A DNA stretch of 64,000 nucleotides. Origin: an uncultured Gammaproteobacteria bacterium. GTDB lineage: Bacteria; Patescibacteriota; Microgenomatia; JALYQM01. A program made the position numbers and the translations under genes. The notes beneath the pieces are model-generated. The model was not told where the DNA came from, searched no databases, and worked only from the letters and a program-made list of their open reading frames with translations. The stretch spans positions 1,216,826 to 1,280,825 of the forward strand of contig CAYOFQ010000001.1 in the NCBI GenBank assembly GCA_964403585.1, in the 5' to 3' direction. Shown piece by piece: positions 38,166 through 54,056 of this stretch. Numbering within the stretch: the first letter of the stretch is position 1; every line of letters starts with the position of its first letter.

Positions 38166-39640
<1,475 letters not shown>

Positions 39641-39738
39641 ATAAAAATTATCCATCAAATTTTGGGTATTCCGTTATCAATCCTACTAACTCTTACAAGC
39701 GTTCGGTCTGTCAAACGGAATGAAATTCATAGGAATTG

Positions 39739-42006: not shown

Positions 42007-44835
42007 ATGCTTTCAAAAACGCTGAGCAATTCTCTCCAACGCAATAAAATAGTATTTATCTATGCAATTTTCGCAGCAGTTCTTGGCTTGTCACTCTATT
42101 ACAGCCAGACATCAACAGTAAAAATCAATCAAAAGAAACCTGAGATCTCCGGAACACTTCGGCATATTACCCAACACGTACTCGATCAGGAAAATCCCAT
42201 TGAGCAGGCAGTGCTTGTAACAGAGGGGAAAACATACACTTTGGATTATGGAGATAACCTGGAAGAATATTACAATAAGTATATAACCGTCCAGGGAGAC
42301 ATTAATCAGAATACGCTCATTGCACAAAAAATAGAGCTCTCCACAAACGCTTCGTTGACCGATATTGACTCAAGTGAAGCGCAATCAACAACCGGCGATA
42401 TAAAACCATTAGTACTTCTCATTAATTTCAAGGACAATACGTCAACTCCTTTTAGCAAAGAATTACTTGCTCAGAACATTTTTACCGGAGAAAATTCAGT
42501 AAAAAATTATTTTACTGAAGCTTCATTTGGAAAAACAAAAATTATCGGCGACATAAACAGTGTCAAAGGATGGTATACCATCGACTTGGCAAGCGACAAA
42601 TGTGATACAAATTGGCTTTATGATATGGGTATCAAAGCCAGAGCAAAAGCAGAAGCTGACGGAATTAGCTACAGCAACTACAACTCCTTTATCATCATCC
42701 ATGCTCGAACAGCAGCCTGCAGTACCAAGCTAGACGGAAAAACATATCCAATTGAAGGACTGTCTGAGTTAGGAGGAAGATTGGTCTGGATGAACGGCAA
42801 TGCGAATATCCGACCTATTGCCCATGAAATTGTACATACGATGGGTATCGGACACTCGCATCTCTGTACAGACATTTCCTGCCAAACAATTAGGGAAACC
42901 GGCGACCGGACAGATTTAATGGGAATTTACCAAAACACAGCGCCTTCACATATTAACGCAGCGTTTAAAAATGCTCTTAAATGGATTCCTGAAACCGAAC
43001 CCCGCACAAAAAGACTACTTGGTCCGAAGAAATATGATAATCTAGCGATTTATCCTGTCGAAGAATCAAGTTCTAACACCCAGCTAATAAAAATTGGAAT
43101 TCTCCCCCCTTATTATTCGGCGGACTATACTATTACCTACCGAGTTAAAAAGGACAATAACTTCGACGCTCGGGCAAATATTGAAAACGGAATATATATC
43201 CACCGTTATTCCACACTTGAGTCAACATTCGGGAAACAATCACCCAGTTCAAAATTAGTCAGACATTTGACCCCTGGCAACCCAACATTTACCGATCCGG
43301 AATATAAAGTAACAATCAAATTAATTGGCATGGATTCAACAAAAGCAAACTTGTTTATAGATTACGGGCTTGATGGAACGTTCGTCAACGAACCTGCACC
43401 TAGTCCAAGCGGTACTGCCCCGTCCATCAGCTACTGTTCAGGGCTCGATGCTAAAAATATGCTCTCTAACGCTGTGACTTATTGTTACGGACATGCGAAG
43501 AGCACAACCTGCGCAACTATGGATACAGCTCTTCGAGCATCATATGGACCGGCCAATCTATGCGAACAAAATAAAACCCAGTGTACCAGCGGTGCTTCCA
43601 GCGGGATATGTACTGCCGCAGCCGAATTTCAAAAAGTTACCGATTGGTGTTATAACATCGTACGCAATGATCCGACCGAAGCCGGCAAAGCTGGCGTCAG
43701 CGCAAAATGGTGCAATGATTTCGCGACAGTAACAAGTGATGCCCATGAAGACTGCAACACCTGTTCCGGCGGCACCGGAAGTAATCCTGAAGCCACACCG
43801 AAGATAGTAGCAATCAATGGAGGTATTTGGGATACTAATGGAAATCCGGTGAGTGGAGTAAAAGTAAAAGTTGAAGGCAATGGAGCTAGCGGCGCCTGGA
43901 AACCATACTTCCCGACAACTCGACCAAACGGGACTTTTAGTCAAGGTGGATTTATAGTTAAAGGCGGAAGATATAACGTCTCGGTAGTTGATGTTGAAGC
44001 AAAAACTATTGTTGAGCCTGATACAAAAAATAGAGTTACCGGACAAGATACACCACTTGGATCAGTTGCGTATCTAAATCAACAAGCGGAAAGCGACGAT
44101 TGCACAGAAAGTTGGGGTGGAGCTGATTCTCGATGTATTTTTCTAGTACGAAAACCTTTGGACATCGGAACTGCCAATGACGTTACGACATTCTATTACC
44201 CTTCAAATGACCGAATAGTGGTGCATCGCTCCTATGTAATGAAAGACGGGCGAACTTTCAATTGGAGAAAATGTTCATTTCCTCCTGCAAAAGGATGGCC
44301 TGTTTACTGTGAAGGATATAACAAAACAATGCTGGATACACCTACTCCAATACTCGGGTACGGAGCACTCATGATCTCGAGCAAAGTTCGCCAGGATTTT
44401 ATCGCATCCAACGGACAGACCAGGTACAGTAGAGTCTGCGCATGGAACAAAGAAAAATCTCAGGTTACAACTTGTGGGGCGTATGTTACCGAAAAAATTA
44501 CTGCCCCAACCGCAGTCAGAGACATTAACACGATGATTTTGTTCGGAAAATATCGGGAATCGCTCATTAGCCTTGATGGCAAAAAAACGTATTCAAGGGA
44601 CTGCACACTAGACTTCAGCACCACTGCTTTTTCAAACTGTACAGCATATCAAACATACTCAACTCAAACAATACTTTCTGGCGGTGTTAGTGGTTATGGA
44701 GCACTCCCTTATCGAGATGGGTATGGCAGAACTGCAATTCAGCAAATATTCCTTGGCATGGATGGACGTACATTCCAGGTGGGAAGCTGTGTTGCTCAAT
44801 CCTCCAGCAATATTACCTGCAAGAATGTATTTTAG
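42007..44835 (+). CDS. large secreted/membrane-anchored metzincin-like zinc metalloprotease with Cys-rich C-terminal region
   Basis: N-terminal hydrophobic anchor IVFIYAIFAAVLGLSLYY; IAHEIVHTMGIGHSH fits HExxHxxGxxH; more than 25 Cys in the C-terminal half; 942 aa. Confidence 0.6.
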   Translation: MLSKTLSNSLQRNKIVFIYAIFAAVLGLSLYYSQTSTVKINQKKPEISGTLRHITQHVLDQENPIEQAVLVTEGKTYTLDYGDNLEEYYNKYITVQGDINQNTLIAQKIELSTNASLTDIDSSEAQSTTGDIKPLVLLINFKDNTSTPFSKELLAQNIFTGENSVKNYFTEASFGKTKIIGDINSVKGWYTIDLASDKCDTNWLYDMGIKARAKAEADGISYSNYNSFIIIHARTAACSTKLDGKTYPIEGLSELGGRLVWMNGNANIRPIAHEIVHTMGIGHSHLCTDISCQTIRETGDRTDLMGIYQNTAPSHINAAFKNALKWIPETEPRTKRLLGPKKYDNLAIYPVEESSSNTQLIKIGILPPYYSADYTITYRVKKDNNFDARANIENGIYIHRYSTLESTFGKQSPSSKLVRHLTPGNPTFTDPEYKVTIKLIGMDSTKANLFIDYGLDGTFVNEPAPSPSGTAPSISYCSGLDAKNMLSNAVTYCYGHAKSTTCATMDTALRASYGPANLCEQNKTQCTSGASSGICTAAAEFQKVTDWCYNIVRNDPTEAGKAGVSAKWCNDFATVTSDAHEDCNTCSGGTGSNPEATPKIVAINGGIWDTNGNPVSGVKVKVEGNGASGAWKPYFPTTRPNGTFSQGGFIVKGGRYNVSVVDVEAKTIVEPDTKNRVTGQDTPLGSVAYLNQQAESDDCTESWGGADSRCIFLVRKPLDIGTANDVTTFYYPSNDRIVVHRSYVMKDGRTFNWRKCSFPPAKGWPVYCEGYNKTMLDTPTPILGYGALMISSKVRQDFIASNGQTRYSRVCAWNKEKSQVTTCGAYVTEKITAPTAVRDINTMILFGKYRESLISLDGKKTYSRDCTLDFSTTAFSNCTAYQTYSTQTILSGGVSGYGALPYRDGYGRTAIQQIFLGMDGRTFQVGSCVAQSSSNITCKNVF

Positions 44836-44845
44836 GAAATTGGGA

Positions 44846-45880
44846 TTACCAACCACCGCTGGAACCACCACCGCCACTTGATCCACCGCCAAATCCACCA
44901 AACCCGCCCCCACTAGAACCACGTCCCCAACCTCCACCACCAAAACCGCCATAAGAATGGAACCAATCAGTTGGTCGACCATTTCTTGAAAGACGCTGAT
45001 AATTTCGGGACAGAATCCAATCCAAAATTAAGCCCAAAATTCCACCAGCGACGACAGCACTGAGAATAAATCCAGTACTACCGAGAATAAATCCGAGTAT
45101 TCCTCCACCAATTCCTCCTACCAAACCACCAAACATTACATCTTTTGTTCTCGCCATATAACTGGCCATATAAATTAAGGCCATCGGTATAAGAAAAATA
45201 AACTCACCAAAGTTTGAAAGAATCGAATCAAACGTTGATCCCGTTGCTTTACGAACAGGGTTATTTCCGATACCTTGTGAAACACCATCTTCAGGGGAGC
45301 CGATTTCCTCCATTATGGCATGCGTTCCGTCAACAATCCCCTGTTCAAATTTTGACTCCCGAAAACGGGGGGCCACAACTGATCGAATTATCTCACCCGC
45401 ATCTCCGTCAGTCATAACCCCTTCCAGACCATAACCGACTTCAATTCGAATTTTTCGCTCATTTTTACTTATTAAAAATATAATCCCGTTATCTTTATCT
45501 TTTTTTCCTACTTTCCAGGTATCCATAAGTCCGATCCCATACTCTTCAAGCGTTTGTTCTCCCAGCGTATCAATCGTTACCACTGCGATCTCATTAGTCG
45601 TTTTTTGTTCATATTGAGTTAATTCCTGCTCCAGTTGTTGCCTGCCACCGCTTGAAAGCATCTGGGCATAGTCATTGACATACCCCTGATACGCAGGATA
45701 TGCTGCTCCGAAACATAAAGCGGCAAAAAGGAAAAAGTCGAGAAAAAACAGGACCACTCCAACGCCGAGTTTGTATAAGTAGTAGAAAAATCCATGCACC
45801 TGTTTGGCTGTCGAAGCCACTGCTCTCCGACGCACATTGGAAATTCGTGAATGCAACCGCTTCAGATGTTTACGCGACAT
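44846..45880 (-). CDS. TPM-domain protein (YgcG-like) with Gly-rich C-terminal tail
   Basis: TPM core ...NEIAVVTIDTLGEQTLEEYG...GIIFLISKNERKIRIEVGYGLEG...; tail GGFGGGGWGRGSSGGGFGGFGGG. Confidence 0.75.
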   Translation of the reverse strand: MSRKHLKRLHSRISNVRRRAVASTAKQVHGFFYYLYKLGVGVVLFFLDFFLFAALCFGAAYPAYQGYVNDYAQMLSSGGRQQLEQELTQYEQKTTNEIAVVTIDTLGEQTLEEYGIGLMDTWKVGKKDKDNGIIFLISKNERKIRIEVGYGLEGVMTDGDAGEIIRSVVAPRFRESKFEQGIVDGTHAIMEEIGSPEDGVSQGIGNNPVRKATGSTFDSILSNFGEFIFLIPMALIYMASYMARTKDVMFGGLVGGIGGGILGFILGSTGFILSAVVAGGILGLILDWILSRNYQRLSRNGRPTDWFHSYGGFGGGGWGRGSSGGGFGGFGGGSSGGGGSSGGW

Positions 45881-45900
45881 ACCCCACCTCTCGCGATTAA

Positions 45901-46461
45901 TTAGAATTCAACCTTCGGTGCCTGATCAGCACCGCTCTGCGCTTCAAAATATTTCTTCTCATCAAACCCCATCATGCCTGCCACCAGGACTGTTGGAAAC
46001 TTCTTCAGCGACGTATTGTAATCCTGTACACTGTCATTGTAACGCTTACGTTCGACAGAGATACGGTTCTCAGTTCCTGCTAATTCATCCATCAGTCGGG
46101 CTACCGTTGCATCACTTTTGATATTCGGATATTGTTCAACGATCACCAGCAATCTGCTCAAAGTGCTTTCCAGATTATTTGCCGCTGCGACTTTATCCTC
46201 AGTCGATTGAGCTCCGGCATATCGTGTACGGGCGTCAGCTATGTCTTTATAAATAGTCTGCTCCTGCTGGAAAAATCCCTTAGTAGACTCTACGAGATTT
46301 GGAATTAAATCAAACCGACGTTGATATTGCGTTTGAACTTGCGCCCATTGCGCATCAACTGCCTGGCTTTTTGACACCAGCGAATTATAGGTTCCACCGA
46401 ATATGAGACCTAAGATTAATAAGATACCGACGATAACACCTACCGGCATGAGCCATTTCAT
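45901..46461 (-). CDS. lemA: LemA-family protein
   Basis: N-terminal TM then LemA-type region TYNSLVSKSQAVDAQWAQVQTQYQRRFDLIPNLVE; adjacent to the TPM protein (common pairing). Confidence 0.8.
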   Translation of the reverse strand: MKWLMPVGVIVGILLILGLIFGGTYNSLVSKSQAVDAQWAQVQTQYQRRFDLIPNLVESTKGFFQQEQTIYKDIADARTRYAGAQSTEDKVAAANNLESTLSRLLVIVEQYPNIKSDATVARLMDELAGTENRISVERKRYNDSVQDYNTSLKKFPTVLVAGMMGFDEKKYFEAQSGADQAPKVEF

Positions 46462-46501: not shown

Positions 46502-47299
46502 ATGATTCCTTCACCACCACTCAACGCAGTGCATCTTGGACCAGTAACAATTCATTTATATGGCTTTATTATAGCACTCGCCATAACTATATGTTATATC
46601 CTTGCATTAAAAATTGCAAAAGAAAAAGGGTTCTCTTCTGATGACGTTGATTCATACTTCTTCACAACGATACCAGTCGCACTCATATTCGCCCGTGGAT
46701 ATCACGTCTTTACCAACTGGAGTATTTACGCGAAAAATCCACTGAGCATTTTTGCAGTTTGGAATGGGGGGCTCGGAATTTTAGGTGCAATTATCGGCGG
46801 AGCGCTCACACTATTCTACTTGAGCAAAAAAACTAAGCATAATTTCATAGCGATAGCCGACTTTATCTTCCCCCTACTTGCCCTAGGACAAGCTATCGGG
46901 CGCTGGGGGAATTATTTTAACCAGGAGTTATACGGTAGTCCAAGCACTCTTCCCTGGGCAGTTCATATTGACGAGATCAACCGGCTTCCGGCTGTCAAAC
47001 AATACCCAACGTTTCACCCTACTTTTCTCTATGAGTCTTTATTAAACTTTATCAATTTCGGGATTTTGTGGGTTATATACCGGAAATATTCGCCACGCGG
47101 AGGAATTGTGACGAGCTTATACTTACTGAACTACGGGATCATCCGTTTCCTCGTCGAATTGGTCAAACTTGATCCGGATACCGACAGCAAAATTGGATTA
47201 TTACGTGTACCTCAATATCTCGCACTACTTCTGGTTAGTATCGGTGTTGTTCTCGCAATAAGATCATTCCACCAGAAAAAGATCGAGCATCGCGTTTGA
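46502..47299 (+). CDS. lgt: prolipoprotein diacylglyceryl transferase
   Basis: GRWGNYFNQELYG signature, multi-TM; 265 aa. Confidence 0.85.
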   Translation: MIPSPPLNAVHLGPVTIHLYGFIIALAITICYILALKIAKEKGFSSDDVDSYFFTTIPVALIFARGYHVFTNWSIYAKNPLSIFAVWNGGLGILGAIIGGALTLFYLSKKTKHNFIAIADFIFPLLALGQAIGRWGNYFNQELYGSPSTLPWAVHIDEINRLPAVKQYPTFHPTFLYESLLNFINFGILWVIYRKYSPRGGIVTSLYLLNYGIIRFLVELVKLDPDTDSKIGLLRVPQYLALLLVSIGVVLAIRSFHQKKIEHRV

Positions 47300-47920
47300 G
47301 TTTGGTGTGTGATCAACAGGGGGATTGAGATCTTTCGTATGATACCCCGAAGTTCCATCTTTACCACAATATTTAACTAGTGGATCCTTGCCTCCCGGGT
47401 GTAAAGTCATATAGTCGCTGACATTATAGATTTTGTGATCAATAACCATCCAGCAGTCATTCTGCGTATTATGTGAAGCAACTCGAACTAATTGCGGATC
47501 CGGAGGCTGAGTCGGCACCGGGGTTGGCGTAGGTGTCGGTGTTGGTGTCGGAGCCTGAGTAGGGGCTGGCGTCGGTGTCGGCGTAGCTGTTGGCTGAGTA
47601 GTTGCAGTAGTCGTGGCCGTGGCTGCTACAGCCGAAGGCTTTGGTGTCGCGGTTGGCTTCCTGGTAGGCGTTGGAGAAGGAGTAGGCGTTGCAATATCAT
47701 CGGGAGTTTCCGCTACCTCAGGAGAGTTCGTCAGGAATTCATCGGTCGGGGCTGGTGATAGTACCGCGGCTACCTCGGTAGGATTCGGTGAGGCCGATTT
47801 TTTGCCATTTTTTGATGAATTGGCTACAACCGATCGTTGCGAAAAATACACTACTACCAGCAAAATACAAACAAAGTTAATTATGCTAATCCGAATCAAA
47901 ATTAATAAATACGATTTCAT
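47264..47920 (-). CDS. membrane-anchored secreted protein with Pro/Thr-rich linker and C-terminal cytochrome-b5-like heme-binding domain
   Basis: N-terminal TM; PT linker; HNTQNDCWMVIDHKIYNVSDYMTLHPGG...GKDGTSGYH matches the cyt-b5 pattern [FY]-x-x-x-H-P-G-G plus the distal His. Start at 47920 lies 1 nt from the NOX-like stop (47922). Confidence 0.65.
   Translation of the reverse strand: MKSYLLILIRISIINFVCILLVVVYFSQRSVVANSSKNGKKSASPNPTEVAAVLSPAPTDEFLTNSPEVAETPDDIATPTPSPTPTRKPTATPKPSAVAATATTTATTQPTATPTPTPAPTQAPTPTPTPTPTPVPTQPPDPQLVRVASHNTQNDCWMVIDHKIYNVSDYMTLHPGGKDPLVKYCGKDGTSGYHTKDLNPPVDHTPNSNAMLDLFLVE
47483..47700. repeat. low-complexity ACN/CCN codon repeat encoding the Pro/Thr linker
   Basis: Repeated ggtgtcgg/ggtgttgg units on the plus strand (= TPTPTPTP on the minus). 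Confidence 0.6.
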
Positions 47921-47921
47921 A

Positions 47922-49229
47922 CTATAAAATATTAAAGTCCTCAAAAATAATGTCTTTCTCGTCAACCCCTCGAGATATAAACTGATTTTGTAAGCTCTTC
48001 ATCATTGGTTGTGGTCCACACATTAGTATCGTATACCCCGCGAGCGAACCGACAGTTCTCCAAATAGCGTCCCCATTCAGCCTCCCCTGGTCATGCGACG
48101 CCCACGGAATAAAACGTACCGATGGAGTATATGAAGTAAGGGTGTTTATTTCATCAACAAAAACCGCTTCTTGGGAATTTTTAAACGAATAAAATAATAC
48201 AATATTTCGAGATTTGGGATATACTGATTCAAAACGTAACATACTCAAAAATGGAGTAATTCCAATTCCGCCCCCAATAAACAACAAATTTTTATCTCCT
48301 TTCATATACGCACTACCAAACCGGCCATACGGACCGAAAATATGGGCGAAATCTCCCGGAGCCAGTTCTGTTAACCGCTTCGTGTAGTCACCCAAAATCT
48401 TAGCGCTTACTCTAATACCCTCTTCCCATGGAGCCGATGAAAATGAAAAAGGATGTAATTCATTCCCCAACTTTTGATTATCAAAACGTATATAAATAAA
48501 CTGTCCTGGGACAAATTTGATGGCTTTTTCTTCAGGTTTCAAATATATACTAAACACGTCACCCGTCCTGGTGATGTTCTCTATAACATATTTATAACGT
48601 GGACCAAACTTACGATATAAAAAAAGAATATATAAGGAAGAAAATATCCCAATAGCAATAAAAATATAGGTCCACCCACGAAGCAGTGCATTTCTGGTTA
48701 CATCGCTGGGGATATATACCGTATGAAGGCTACCCAAAATAAAAGATACAACTAACAGTCGGTGAGACCACAACCACGCACTATACGAAACCTTTATAAA
48801 CCCAATAAAAATAAAAGACAGGATCATTGAATATATCGCTGCAATTCCAAGATTATAGGCTAAATCACTACTCGGAAAAATATAAAACAAAGCCAACTTA
48901 AAATGAGGTAAATAATGGATTACTAGGAATAACGGGTGATTAATTAGGAAAATAAAGGAAATTCCACCAATAATATGATGCAGCACATAGTCTGAATCAA
49001 GCCCACCGAATATGTCTTCAAGAATCGCCAAACGCGTTGAGAATAACAAAGCAACAGAACAAAGCACTAACCCTAACAATGACAGAATTTGACTAACAGC
49101 TAGGAAGGGTTGTGTAGAAATTATCGCAAGATCGTCCTTCGAGAGTAACCAAAACGCAATTGTATTGACACAACAAAGTATGAGTATCGTGTACCCCAAT
49201 GCTTTATACATAGCACCATGATAATGCAT
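47922..49229 (-). CDS. ferric-reductase / NADPH-oxidase (NOX/FRE) family flavocytochrome: TM bis-heme domain + FAD-binding + NAD(P)H-binding domains
   Basis: Two His-x13-His pairs in TM helices (HHIIGGISFIFLINH; HRLLVVSFILGSLH); FAD motif HPFSFSS; NAD(P)H motif GGGIGITPF; 435 aa. Confidence 0.8.
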   Translation of the reverse strand: MHYHGAMYKALGYTILILCCVNTIAFWLLSKDDLAIISTQPFLAVSQILSLLGLVLCSVALLFSTRLAILEDIFGGLDSDYVLHHIIGGISFIFLINHPLFLVIHYLPHFKLALFYIFPSSDLAYNLGIAAIYSMILSFIFIGFIKVSYSAWLWSHRLLVVSFILGSLHTVYIPSDVTRNALLRGWTYIFIAIGIFSSLYILFLYRKFGPRYKYVIENITRTGDVFSIYLKPEEKAIKFVPGQFIYIRFDNQKLGNELHPFSFSSAPWEEGIRVSAKILGDYTKRLTELAPGDFAHIFGPYGRFGSAYMKGDKNLLFIGGGIGITPFLSMLRFESVYPKSRNIVLFYSFKNSQEAVFVDEINTLTSYTPSVRFIPWASHDQGRLNGDAIWRTVGSLAGYTILMCGPQPMMKSLQNQFISRGVDEKDIIFEDFNIL

Positions 49230-49353
49230 TACGTTGCAGACAACAACCGAGTTACCGCAAACAAGATGATGCTAATTGTAATAGCAAACAAAAGCAGAGC
49301 CAGCAGCACAGTCAGCGAAGTAGTTATAAGTTTAGAGACTTTCATAAAATCAA

Positions 49354-49383
49354 TTGACAACCCTTAAAAAACTGACGTATAGT
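49354..49383 (+). promoter_or_regulatory. putative promoter for the 49404 gene
   Basis: TTGACA-N18-TATAGT about 20 nt upstream of the ATG. Confidence 0.35.
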
Positions 49384-49403
49384 CTTAGTAGCTATAGTAT
49401 TGT

Positions 49404-50417
49404 ATGAAAAATAGAAAACTAAATCAAAACCTGACAGTGGTAATTGCCGCGTTTATTTTTGCAGTTATACTTTATTCTGGATCACGAATTCTACGAAGTA
49501 ATCCTGAAAGTATTAATACCGCCGAGTTGCTCAATGCCCAAACAAGCTGTAATACATCCTTCTTTTCAATAATTAGTCCGGCCGGTTGGAACTTTACCAA
49601 GAGCTGTCTCCAAAATAACCTTCAAATCTACTCTACAGACAGCCGTTTTTTGTTTTTTCAACCGTCTACTGAACTTAACAATGCTGTAACTATAAAAACA
49701 CCAAACAGTGAAATAAAAGATAACACTAATTTAAATTGGTCGATCAATGTTACAAGCAGCGCCAAACTGATTGTAATGCCACGACATATTCCGGGATTAA
49801 CCGCACCGGCTTGGATTAGGAACGGGTATACACGACAAACAACGGATGATCTGTCACAGATAGCCCAATTTAGTAAGCGAAAAAATGACCAGGGCCTGAT
49901 TGGTCTTTATGATATTTATACCCGAAACATCGGGCCGGGCACAGTTATATTACAAGGGGCTTCTGATGCTACAACTCCTGCATATTCAATGTACCTCGTA
50001 GCGTTGATTCCAGGCACCATCACAACACCGACAGCAACCCCGACTCCGTCACCTACGCCATCACGATCTCCTTCGCCAACACCAACGGCTAACCCCAGTC
50101 TGCCTCCCGCCAATCTTTTGGCTATTGCGTCCCAACATGTGAATCCGCCGGCAGATTGTTGGACTGTATACCGTGCTTCCGATGGCTGGCACCTCTATAA
50201 CATCTCTCCGTATTTCTCGGTCGTAGTAAACGGGAAAACGATTAAGCAGCACCCGGGAAGCGACGCAGATTTGGCCTGGGCCTGCGGCAAAGACATGACC
50301 GATGTATTTAACAAGGGTGCCAAAACTGCTGGGGTTTCTGGACACGGCGATAAAGCACATCTCAGCCATTCTTCGGCTACTAACAAATTAAAGGAATTAC
50401 GCGTACCCGGGTATTAA
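49404..50417 (+). CDS. secreted protein with Pro/Thr/Ser-rich linker and C-terminal cytochrome-b5-like domain (second copy, divergent)
   Basis: N-terminal anchor VVIAAFIFAVILY; linker TPTATPTPSPTPSRSPSPTP; C-terminal ADCWTVYRASDGWHLYNISPY...QHPGS...GKDMTDVFNKG...HG resembles HPGG...GxDATxxF...H of cyt b5. Confidence 0.55.
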   Translation: MKNRKLNQNLTVVIAAFIFAVILYSGSRILRSNPESINTAELLNAQTSCNTSFFSIISPAGWNFTKSCLQNNLQIYSTDSRFLFFQPSTELNNAVTIKTPNSEIKDNTNLNWSINVTSSAKLIVMPRHIPGLTAPAWIRNGYTRQTTDDLSQIAQFSKRKNDQGLIGLYDIYTRNIGPGTVILQGASDATTPAYSMYLVALIPGTITTPTATPTPSPTPSRSPSPTPTANPSLPPANLLAIASQHVNPPADCWTVYRASDGWHLYNISPYFSVVVNGKTIKQHPGSDADLAWACGKDMTDVFNKGAKTAGVSGHGDKAHLSHSSATNKLKELRVPGY

Positions 50418-50419
50418 AT

Positions 50420-50977
50420 ATGACAACGATTTTTGGATACATTTTGCTCGGAATATATCACGCGGTAATAGTAATTCCAATGTTTTATATAATTCCGCAG
50501 GCGCTAATTATAGCAGGATATTTATTCAACCTGAAAAAATGGAATAAGAAGTACATTCAGCATTTCGTTATTAATTCAGGTACTACATTTATCACCGCCA
50601 CGATAATTACTCATTTATACTTTTTACTGCGTCCTTTCGTAAACGTCTTCGAGTCAATTTCAATAATCTACACCCCGCTAACTATCGTGCTAATGCTGCT
50701 TTTTGTACTCATACCATTCCTTCCAATTCCAATATCCTATTACGTCAACAAGCGATTAACTAAGAAGAAAGAGCGAAAACTGTTCTACTTCTCCGCTGCC
50801 TACTTTTTTTATGCGCTCCTGCTATGTATCTTTTTCATCAAAAACTCACACTCGGTATATTTTCCGGAAGAACTACTTTTAAAACCGCTGCTCGTTCCTA
50901 ATCTCGTTAACTTTACCGAGATATTCGACATCCTCCAAAGCCGACTTTTTCTCGATCTATTCACCATTTTCGCTTAA
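50420..50977 (+). CDS. hydrophobic polytopic membrane protein, unknown function
   Basis: 185 aa, AT-rich, starts 3 nt after the 49404..50417 stop. Confidence 0.5.
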   Translation: MTTIFGYILLGIYHAVIVIPMFYIIPQALIIAGYLFNLKKWNKKYIQHFVINSGTTFITATIITHLYFLLRPFVNVFESISIIYTPLTIVLMLLFVLIPFLPIPISYYVNKRLTKKKERKLFYFSAAYFFYALLLCIFFIKNSHSVYFPEELLLKPLLVPNLVNFTEIFDILQSRLFLDLFTIFA

Positions 50978-53600: not shown

Positions 53601-54056
53601 TTACTTAACCACTATCGTTCCTTTCATTCCCTGAGCAGCATGGTTTCCGATGGAACAGATAAATTCAAACGTACCGGCTTTATCAGGAGTAAACTCAATA
53701 GTTGTCGGCCCGCTGGTCGAAAGATCTTCACTTATACCCAAATCTTTCGCCACGAAATCATGCATTCCACCGGTATTTGTAACAACAAGCTTTACCTTCT
53801 CACCTTTAGAAACCTCTATTTTATTCGGATTAAAACCATAACTGAAAGCTTCCACCTTGATTTCCCGTGCTTGGCCACCCTGATCGGAAGTTATTTTATC
53901 ATCTGTCTGATCAAGCTGATTTGGATCAATACTTGCTACCGGAGATTGGCTCGAAGTCACTGGAGAATCAGTTTCCGCAGGAGTGTTTTGAGAAGAACAT
54001 GCACTAAGTGTAATAACGAGGGTAAGTAATGACACAGCCAGTACTGATCTTTTCAT
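53601..54056 (-). CDS. lipoprotein with cupredoxin-like (type-1 copper) domain
   Basis: Lipobox LTLVITLSAC; ligand-like GGMHDF ... FICSIGNHAAQGM (H...C-x4-H-x4-M). Confidence 0.55.
   Translation of the reverse strand: MKRSVLAVSLLTLVITLSACSSQNTPAETDSPVTSSQSPVASIDPNQLDQTDDKITSDQGGQAREIKVEAFSYGFNPNKIEVSKGEKVKLVVTNTGGMHDFVAKDLGISEDLSTSGPTTIEFTPDKAGTFEFICSIGNHAAQGMKGTIVVK

Follow-up and report, generated by a model that had tools for sequence, protein, structure and literature searches.

To which acceptor does a membrane-bound flavocytochrome of the NADPH oxidase (NOX) type pass its electrons when its gene is packed between the genes of two anchored cytochrome b5-like proteins? This question is raised by a locus in a 64,000-nucleotide stretch of contig CAYOFQ010000001.1 (GenBank assembly GCA_964403585.1, positions 1,216,826 to 1,280,825 of the forward strand; hereafter the window), which derives from an uncultured bacterium deposited as Gammaproteobacteria and assigned by GTDB to the Patescibacteriota (Microgenomatia, JALYQM01). 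The central gene at 47922..49229 encodes a full-length SpNOX-type flavocytochrome of the prokaryotic NOX or long bFRE family, and the two flanking genes encode the b5-like proteins called b5A and b5B in the following (Table 1). As an answer we consider it moderately probable that electrons would travel from NAD(P)H via flavin adenine dinucleotide (FAD) and two membrane hemes to a tethered extracytoplasmic b5 and from there to an external acceptor.

The identity of the central protein is carried by its domains, heme ligands and fold. With the curated (gathering) cutoffs of Pfam (Ferric_reduct 28, FAD_binding_8 22, NAD_binding_1 22, NAD_binding_6 22.2 and, for the neighbouring proteins, Cyt-b5 23.7), it scores above cutoff throughout, with 33.0 for Ferric_reduct, 36.9 for FAD_binding_8, 42.5 for NAD_binding_1 and 23.3 for NAD_binding_6, and six transmembrane (TM) helices are found in the hydropathy scan as well as in the AlphaFold2 (AF2) model (predicted local distance difference test, pLDDT, 92.7; predicted template modelling score, pTM, 0.85). 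The heme-ligand pairs H84-x13-H98 and H156-x12-H169 consist of four histidines that are invariant in 35 of 35 homologues (34-74% identity), and the closest named homologues belong to Roizmanbacteria, Shapirobacteria and Patescibacteria. The closest solved sequence relative is SpNOX (E 9e-33, residues 46-433, 26% identity). Equally, the best Foldseek matches of the model are the SpNOX structures 8qta, 8qt6 and 8qq7 (E down to 2.6e-24, template modelling score 0.80-0.89, root mean square deviation 3.1 A), and the superposition on full-length SpNOX 8qt6 (0.82/0.89 and 3.1 A by the same measures) extends the fold equivalence to a solved NOX over the entire protein. H84 and H156 align to SpNOX H69 and H129 of the inner heme, H98 and H169 to H83 and H142 of the outer heme, and the C-terminal F432 to F397, the FAD-stacking residue. 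Like SpNOX (8QQ7, 8QT6), the protein is a single chain with six TM helices, two bis-His hemes and FAD/NAD(P)H lobes but no regulatory domains, and its extracellular loops are short, with a C-loop that is ~13 residues longer; it is a constitutive SpNOX-type enzyme.

Hajjar et al. (2017) characterize prokaryotic NOX by 3-7 predicted TM helices, two of which, separated by 20 residues or more, carry His-x12/14-His (PMC5676040). The bis-histidyl pattern and helix number of the window protein agree with this definition, as does its NAD(P)H motif GIGITP at residue 321, which is present in 34 of the 35 homologues, whereas the strict FAD motif H[PSA]F[TS][LIMV] is missed by HPFSF at residue 259 with its Phe at position 5. 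As FAD_binding_8 passes its cutoff, this is considered an issue of motif definition rather than a loss of the domain; among the homologues, the strict motif occurs in 20/35 and the relaxed version H[PSA][FY][TS]x in 34/35. The NOX/ferric reductase (FRE) architecture claimed in the original prediction is thus borne out by Pfam domains, invariant histidines and the SpNOX fold, and its two sequence motifs, HPFSFSS and GGGIGITPF, are present; only the two His-x13-His pairs that it described need correction, the spacings being 13 and 12.

The b5A protein carries a classical bis-His cytochrome b5 domain, for which heme binding is predicted. It contains YMTLHPGG and scores 57.2 bits with Pfam Cyt-b5 (PF00173; E 1.8e-15), and its matches in the PDB (E 4.5e-12 to 1e-9), among them 4b8n, 3lf5 and 1cxy at E ~1e-11, are classical bis-His b5s. 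An N-terminal hydrophobic segment at residues ~6-27, a putative signal anchor or signal peptide, is followed by a Pro/Thr/Ala-rich linker (~30-135), which with ~110 residues is much longer than the 18-90 of other lineages, and by the C-terminal bis-His domain (136-218). In this domain, H174 and H204 align to the axial histidines H39 and H63 of bovine b5 and are invariant in 20 NOX-adjacent b5s. C156 and C185, absent from the bovine reference b5 and common to 1CXY, are equally invariant in the NOX-adjacent b5s, with the Cys pair kept in every NOX-linked b5 subfamily examined. A homologue search with the 79-residue b5A domain returned no word-sharing candidates.

On the other side of the NOX gene, b5B ends in a probable divergent b5 domain. 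With 20.0 bits its Cyt-b5 score is below the Pfam cutoff, as is that of its relative in L082 (19.5), while the family members P0124 (31.2) and L081 (23.9) pass; in hhalign, the match to the b5A family reaches 98.6% (E 6e-16), and the two His as well as the two Cys are aligned. H283 (KQHPGS) and H319 (DKAHLS) correspond in the alignment to the ligands of b5A, and both are found in each of the 4 family members. The predicted layout comprises a TM anchor (12-30), a beta-sandwich (~45-205, with C49/C68), a Pro/Thr/Ser linker (~206-233) and the b5-like domain (~234-337) with C252, H283, C294, H319 and a 9-residue insertion before the HPG motif. That both flanking proteins possess an anchor and a Pro/Thr linker and end in a b5-like bis-His domain had been proposed in the original prediction and holds, with the reservation of the sub-threshold Pfam score of b5B. 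The beta-sandwich, on the other hand, had been overlooked. This module of ~160 residues (window 49536..50018, plus strand) between anchor and linker, with its conserved Cys pair, is covered by no Pfam family and has 11 detectable relatives, most of which precede alginate lyase (PF05426, PF08787) or beta-helix domains; it is lineage-restricted, always stands after an N-terminal anchor and before a Pro/Thr linker, and is also carried by P0127 of the same genome as the window. Its model matches the accessory domain of a GH138 pectin-degrading enzyme in Foldseek (E 1e-5), and by this modelled fold it is predicted to be a shared surface-display or carbohydrate-binding-type module.

On which side of the membrane the heme domains are located was predicted computationally with a hydropathy scan of the b5 proteins. 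Nearly all NOX-adjacent b5 proteins possess a single hydrophobic segment at ~4-28 preceded by an n-region of 3-8 residues and followed by a low-complexity linker and the heme domain(s), a layout of the signal-peptide or signal-anchor type which is the reverse of tail-anchored eukaryotic b5. Taken together, the N-terminal segment, the invariant Cys pair, the Pro/Thr linkers and the lyase-type module make a position of the b5 domains outside the cell the most economical reading. Alginate lyases act outside the cell, and the combination of an anchor with a module common to these enzymes argues for an extracytoplasmic b5B.

Pairing of a NOX homologue with a b5 gene is not a peculiarity of the window. 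In a survey with one genome per GTDB species, which comprised 80 loci (L001-L080) with NOX homologues at 26-43% identity and in which b5 open reading frames (ORFs) were detected with an iteratively built b5 hidden Markov model, a b5 ORF is directly adjacent to NOX, on its downstream side, in 26 of the 80 loci. The same is seen in all 5 metagenomic relatives L081-L085, which together with the P0006 contig stand outside the 80-locus set. Conservation of the pair in related genomes, on which the original prediction had staked itself, is hence found. The 1.26 Mb of related loci contain 39 b5 ORFs, and as 37 of these directly flank NOX, chance or artefact behind the adjacency is rejected. In the window the b5A ATG stands 1 nucleotide (nt) past the NOX stop (TAG-T-ATG), as had been read before, and the tight coupling deduced from this spacing gains weight from relatives, since near-zero spacing is kept in distant lineages: most gaps between NOX stop and b5 start lie between -4 and +10 nt, and 13 of 30 junctions are 4-nt overlaps. 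The pair is probably also present in L036, where NOX is flanked by two divergent b5-like genes (83% by hhalign), and in L032, whose b5 is interrupted.

The degree to which the surroundings are kept depends on the relative. L081 and L082 (73-74% NOX identity) keep the whole window arrangement including b5B, the TM protein downstream of it and a small ORF; the P0006 contig (~49%) keeps NOX, b5 and the convergent lgt with a phytase-domain gene in place of b5B; and in L083-L085 (~45%) a divergent b5-like gene, here named type II, is followed by NOX, Cyt-b5, an OmpR-type regulator and a histidine kinase. Tandem b5 domains occur in L004, L023, L040 and L049, and b5 genes on both sides of NOX in L008, L083-L085 and the window. 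In phmmer searches against the 80 loci, no matches were obtained for the small ORF, the N-terminal module of b5B, TM185, YflT, TPM, HD and TM159, and Lgt, LemA, EndoIV and the cupredoxin match only 1-2 of the 80 loci each. Only the NOX-b5 pair is widely conserved across the surveyed loci.

Its carriers are labelled as many classes of the Candidate Phyla Radiation (CPR), as Pacearchaeota and as Woesearchaeota. L011 is truly archaeal, as aIF2-gamma and aIF5B adjoin the pair. L071 (labelled Porticoccaceae, guanine-cytosine (GC) content 0.59) and L080 (labelled Pseudomonadales, GC 0.64) carry NOX-b5 pairs and are probably genuine Gammaproteobacteria, while the low-GC metagenome-assembled genomes labelled 'Gammaproteobacteria' or 'Pseudomonadales' (L001, L008, L028, L049, L057) look mislabelled. 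Horizontal transfer of the module between episymbiotic bacteria and archaea seems to have taken place.

The compact type II b5-like family was encountered at L083:5320-5958, L084:5264-5974 and L085:5282-5983 and also in L001, L002, L003, L008 and L057. It shows the pattern C-I-I-T-x-x-G-x-x-Y-D-V-T ... H-S-G-G-[DN]-x-F-x-C-G-x-D, scores 14-26 bits with Pfam Cyt-b5, is related to the b5A type at 98.1% in hhalign and has lost neither the two His nor the two Cys.

Other redox proteins are also encountered beside NOX homologues. In L068, L073, L076 and L077 (Rhizobiales or Rhizobiales-type) a multi-domain c-type cytochrome of ~1090-1155 residues, for which Pfam was run on L073 only, stands directly downstream of NOX; in L029 (Geobacteraceae) a small cytochrome c lipoprotein is found upstream, in L046 (Saprospiraceae) a membrane cytochrome b561 downstream, and in the DPANN-type archaeal metagenome-assembled genomes L013 and L017 ApbE, a flavin mononucleotide transferase, upstream and a small Pro-rich anchored protein downstream. 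The c-type cytochromes, b561 and ApbE support a general logic of a reductase plus a redox partner.

In the electron path favoured here, hydride from cytoplasmic NAD(P)H would, by homology, be transferred onto the FAD of the NOX-like protein, and single electrons would equally pass on via the inner heme, held by H84/H156, to the outer heme of H98/H169 on the external side of the membrane. The acceptor of the outer heme would primarily be the heme domain of the co-translated b5A rather than O2. Held outside by its anchor and its ~110-residue Pro/Thr tether, b5A could move back and forth between the outer heme, which is exposed, and envelope acceptors farther out, and the long linker fits a shuttle reaching away from the membrane. 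A heme domain that moves between its partners on a flexible tether in the membrane has a precedent in cytochrome c_y. b5B, which would be expressed from a divergent promoter and fixed via its carbohydrate-enzyme-type beta-sandwich, may constitute a second, more distal heme station, and the tandem b5 domains and the b5 genes on both sides of NOX fit such a multi-heme relay. As terminal acceptor, chelated or mineral Fe(III)/Cu(II) would rank before O2 and O2 before a partner protein, for instance the cupredoxin lipoprotein encoded close by or a component of the host surface; overall, the module would regenerate NAD(P)+ and/or allow metals to be acquired reductively. Export of NADPH electrons to external Fe(III)/Cu(II) is known from eukaryotic FRE.

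Support for an acceptor of this kind comes from SpNOX. The sections of the SpNOX report used here describe an outer heme that is highly solvent-exposed, no canonical O2-reduction centre and direct, anaerobic reduction of cytochrome c that is faster than that of O2 or Fe(III), and their authors consider that O2 is perhaps not the physiological acceptor, with MsrQ, which delivers to periplasmic MsrP, as analogy (PMC11564096). To the question of the bacterial NOX acceptor, the coupling of the NOX and b5 genes contributes a specific nominee of the type suggested by that study, namely a tethered exported b5. Alternatively, the protein could be a true NADPH oxidase that converts O2 to superoxide/H2O2 at the outer heme for O2 scavenging, signalling or host attack, with b5s that are not acceptors and, for example, scavenge or use superoxide. 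SpNOX consumes O2 and was first characterized as a superoxide producer, as stated in the sections used here of both studies (PMC5676040, PMC11564096), and the NADPH motif and the bis-His pattern of Hajjar et al. are present in the window protein, which deviates at the fifth position of the strict FAD motif; furthermore, many NOX homologues have no adjacent b5. We nevertheless regard such an oxidase as unlikely, given the features of SpNOX just described and the doubt of its authors, and it would leave unexplained why the gene of an exported bis-His cytochrome overlaps the NOX stop in many lineages.

Several observations weigh against electron export via b5 as well. According to the sections of the report used here, SpNOX does reduce O2 in vitro (PMC11564096). 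No adjacent b5 is detectable for around half of the nearest NOX homologues, several Saccharibacteria among them, and the enzyme can evidently work without b5, as many homologues have no such neighbour. For b5B, AF2 models the N-terminal module with pLDDT 70-90 and the b5-like domain, covered by only 4 sequences, with pLDDT 30-40. The topology rests on the hydropathy scan and the Cys pair, with counts of Lys/Arg around the anchor that are not decisive, and no acceptor gene is consistently linked across the surveyed loci. Electron export, the step from NOX to b5 and the relay by b5B are what we infer from the whole. To our knowledge, CPR genomes are furthermore generally without heme synthesis, and supply and loading of extracellular b-type heme are unexplained.

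The same deficiency would speak for a role in heme handling, in which surface b5-like domains capture or chaperone heme from the environment or the host in a hemophore-like manner, the reductase reduces heme iron or Fe(III) for release or import, and heme transfer is the main function: the enzyme needs two hemes, and long tethers suit capture at the cell surface. In fact, heme discharge and siderophore-like roles have been speculated on for the Tyr-ligated cytb5MY in related operons (Tamarit et al., bioRxiv 10.1101/2021.11.17.468889). However, b5A and b5B retain both axial histidines, b5A is nearest to classical electron-transfer b5s, and neither the window nor the surveyed loci contain a linked gene for a heme transporter. 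As bis-His hexacoordination is typical of electron carriers, with heme-transfer proteins typically displaying a labile coordination, heme handling seems slightly less likely still than the oxidase. Finally, a reversed arrangement with b5 domains in the cytoplasm contacting the dehydrogenase domain, or an adjacency without functional meaning, could appeal to the cytosolic location of eukaryotic b5 and to the hydropathy scan as basis of the topology, but is highly improbable in view of the N-terminal signal-peptide-like segment with its n-region of 3-8 residues opposite to tail-anchored b5, the invariant Cys pair, the Pro/Thr linkers, the b5B anchor combined with a module shared with extracellular alginate lyases and a NOX-b5 adjacency far beyond chance.

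The proposed electron-export module can be set beside several known systems. The original prediction had considered it undescribed, a view that has to be given up, as Tamarit et al. had in 2021 already reported a CPR operon composed of cytb5MY, a putative ferric reductase (pFre), two atypical b5-like proteins and a two-component system with unknown function (bioRxiv 10.1101/2021.11.17.468889, section 3.5). In that operon the barely detectable b5-like CBLA and CBLB flank pFre and all products possess TM helices; PF00173 was recorded within 10 kb of PF01794 in 185 CPR genomes and the co-localization reported to be absent outside CPR (bioRxiv 10.1101/2021.11.17.468889). In the window, too, a PF01794 gene and a PF00173 gene lie within 10 kb of each other, here in what is probably a CPR genome, and are in fact adjacent, and L083-L085 have the layout of that operon including the two-component system directly downstream. 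By description the type II b5-like family and b5B fit CBLA/CBLB, and the type II family is probably CBLA or CBLB of the preprint. Unlike that operon, the window module has no adjacent two-component system in the neighbourhood examined and no Tyr-ligated, MAPR-like cytb5MY, both b5 genes keeping the HPG His, and its b5B bears the extra lyase-type module; no further b5-like gene is found in 40-58 kb of the window. Unlike in the report, the pairing occurs outside CPR, on the archaeal contig L011 and the high-GC contigs labelled Gammaproteobacteria. The preprint is without discussion of topology, export or SpNOX, and no later functional work on the pFre/cytb5 pairing was found in a literature search. 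What is added here is the link to SpNOX, the argument for an export topology, the statistics on translational coupling, the occurrence in DPANN archaea and probable Gammaproteobacteria and the lyase-type module on b5B.

Another system close to b5A is cytochrome b558 of Ectothiorhodospira vacuolata (1CXY), a soluble bacterial b5 to which it aligns with E 1.8e-11 including the Cys positions of DCW and xCGxE/D and both His. The NOX-adjacent b5s of L071 and L080 share with b558 the HP(G/T)P variant of HPGG, which hints that a NOX-like reductase may be what b558-type b5s interact with. Reportedly, a periplasmic location of 1CXY and a disulfide between its two Cys were described in 1999. Whereas b558 is small and soluble, an anchor and a long Pro/Thr linker tie b5A to the membrane. 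A second parallel, drawn by the SpNOX authors in the sections used here, is MsrQ-MsrP (YedZ-YedY), in which an FRD-type di-heme membrane protein delivers via its exposed outer heme to a soluble extracytoplasmic partner (PMC11564096). The window module is not a member of this system: MsrQ is without a fused FAD/NAD(P)H domain and uses quinol or Fre, and MsrP is a molybdoenzyme, not a cytochrome. SpNOX itself, for which no cytochrome partner is named in the sections of its report used here (PMC11564096), differs in that an exported b5 gene is coupled to NOX here and in many CPR/DPANN relatives. The window module can further be compared with eukaryotes. NADH-cytochrome b5 reductase, which is of the FNR type, and b5 form the classic microsomal couple, cytosolic in eukaryotes with a tail-anchored b5. 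In contrast, the membrane would separate the two here, bridged by two TM hemes.

Extending the argument beyond the window, exported cytochromes could be the general physiological acceptors of SpNOX-type prokaryotic NOXs, b5 in CPR, DPANN and some Gammaproteobacteria and c-type in Rhizobiales/Geobacteraceae, so that NOX plus a tethered b5 would represent a minimal NAD(P)H-driven chain for extracellular electron export in ultrasmall symbionts; we put this forward tentatively, as a generalization that may well fail. If true, minerals, O2 or the surface of the host cell could take up the reducing equivalents. A lack of electron-transport chains is reported for Patescibacteria and DPANN (PMC7507113), and a conserved relay, if real, would provide a redox outlet for them and possibly a contact point with hosts or minerals. 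The value of these considerations is tempered by the co-localization being already contained in a preprint and by an analysis that proceeds by inference throughout; the proteins are small, however, and look suited to heterologous expression, as has been the case for SpNOX.

Table 1. Features of the NOX-b5 locus with their positions in the window
Feature	Position	Strand	Size and basis
NOX-like flavocytochrome	47922..49229	-	435 aa; Pfam, invariant His, motifs, PDB match, AF2, Foldseek
b5A	47264..47920	-	218 aa; Pfam Cyt-b5, PDB matches, alignments, topology scan
b5A predicted heme domain proper, residues 136-218	47267..47515	-	alignments, PDB matches, profile comparison
candidate 38-aa single-TM small protein, MKVSKLITTSLTVLLALLLFAITISIILFAVTRLLSAT	49229..49345	-	ORF, junction, conservation in L081/L082
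divergent intergenic region, 58 bp	49346..49403	.	consensus matches to sigma-70-like sites only
b5B	49404..50417	+	337 aa; weak Pfam, hhalign, homologues, AF2, Foldseek
polytopic membrane protein (TM185)	50420..50977	+	185 aa; synteny in L081, L082

The module region contains five ORFs, three on the minus and two on the plus strand, and the ORF list confirms all four genes that had been delimited before. The TAA of the small ORF overlaps the NOX ATG (TAATG), the b5B TAA is separated by a 2-nt spacer from the ATG of TM185, and the 3' end of b5A overlaps the convergent lgt gene. A candidate sigma-70-like promoter, TTGACA-18-TATAGT at 49354..49383 on the plus strand, matches the consensus at 11 of 12 positions ~20 nt upstream of the b5B ATG, and a weaker sigma-70-like site on the minus strand (49427..49399) is a consensus match only.

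The 38-residue ORF, which had been overlooked, has correspondingly placed homologues in L081 (56% identity over 34 residues, E 2e-7) and L082 (47%, E 5e-5) and was not found by phmmer in the more distant 80 loci; its product may serve as a small accessory subunit. In L081 it had been absorbed by the gene caller into a longer NOX ORF. TM185, which stays next to b5B in L081 and L082, has no Pfam or NCBIfam match, and its family has 5 homologues among 1.84 billion representatives, in which H65 is the single invariant His and NxxxxxxxFD is likewise invariant close to the C-terminus. With a single invariant His and 5 homologues, its candidacy as a heme-binding membrane partner was dropped.

A single-domain, lipoprotein-type cupredoxin is encoded 3 kb from the module at 53601..54056 on the minus strand (Cupredoxin_1 59.6 bits, Copper-bind 36.2 bits) and shows the copper-site pattern C-x6-H-x4-M. 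Homologues are found at the same relative position in L081 and the P0006 contig and 7.6 kb from NOX in L032. The protein could be a downstream acceptor, although the link is weak; as a fixed member of the module it was dropped, being linked only in close relatives and L032.

Farther away, a 942-residue protein (42007..44835, plus strand) may belong to the cell surface as a secreted, metalloprotease-like protein; it has an N-terminal anchor, no Pfam match, the HExxH motif AHEIVH and a C-terminal half rich in Cys. Between this gene and the module lies a pair of genes for LemA and a TPM-domain protein with a long Gly/Ser-rich tail (44846..46461, minus strand), which stays beside lgt in L082 and the P0006 contig. 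Finally, a complete 16S rRNA gene is present at 38166..39645 on the minus strand, and as neither 23S nor 5S is found in the 64-kb window, the rRNA genes are unlinked.

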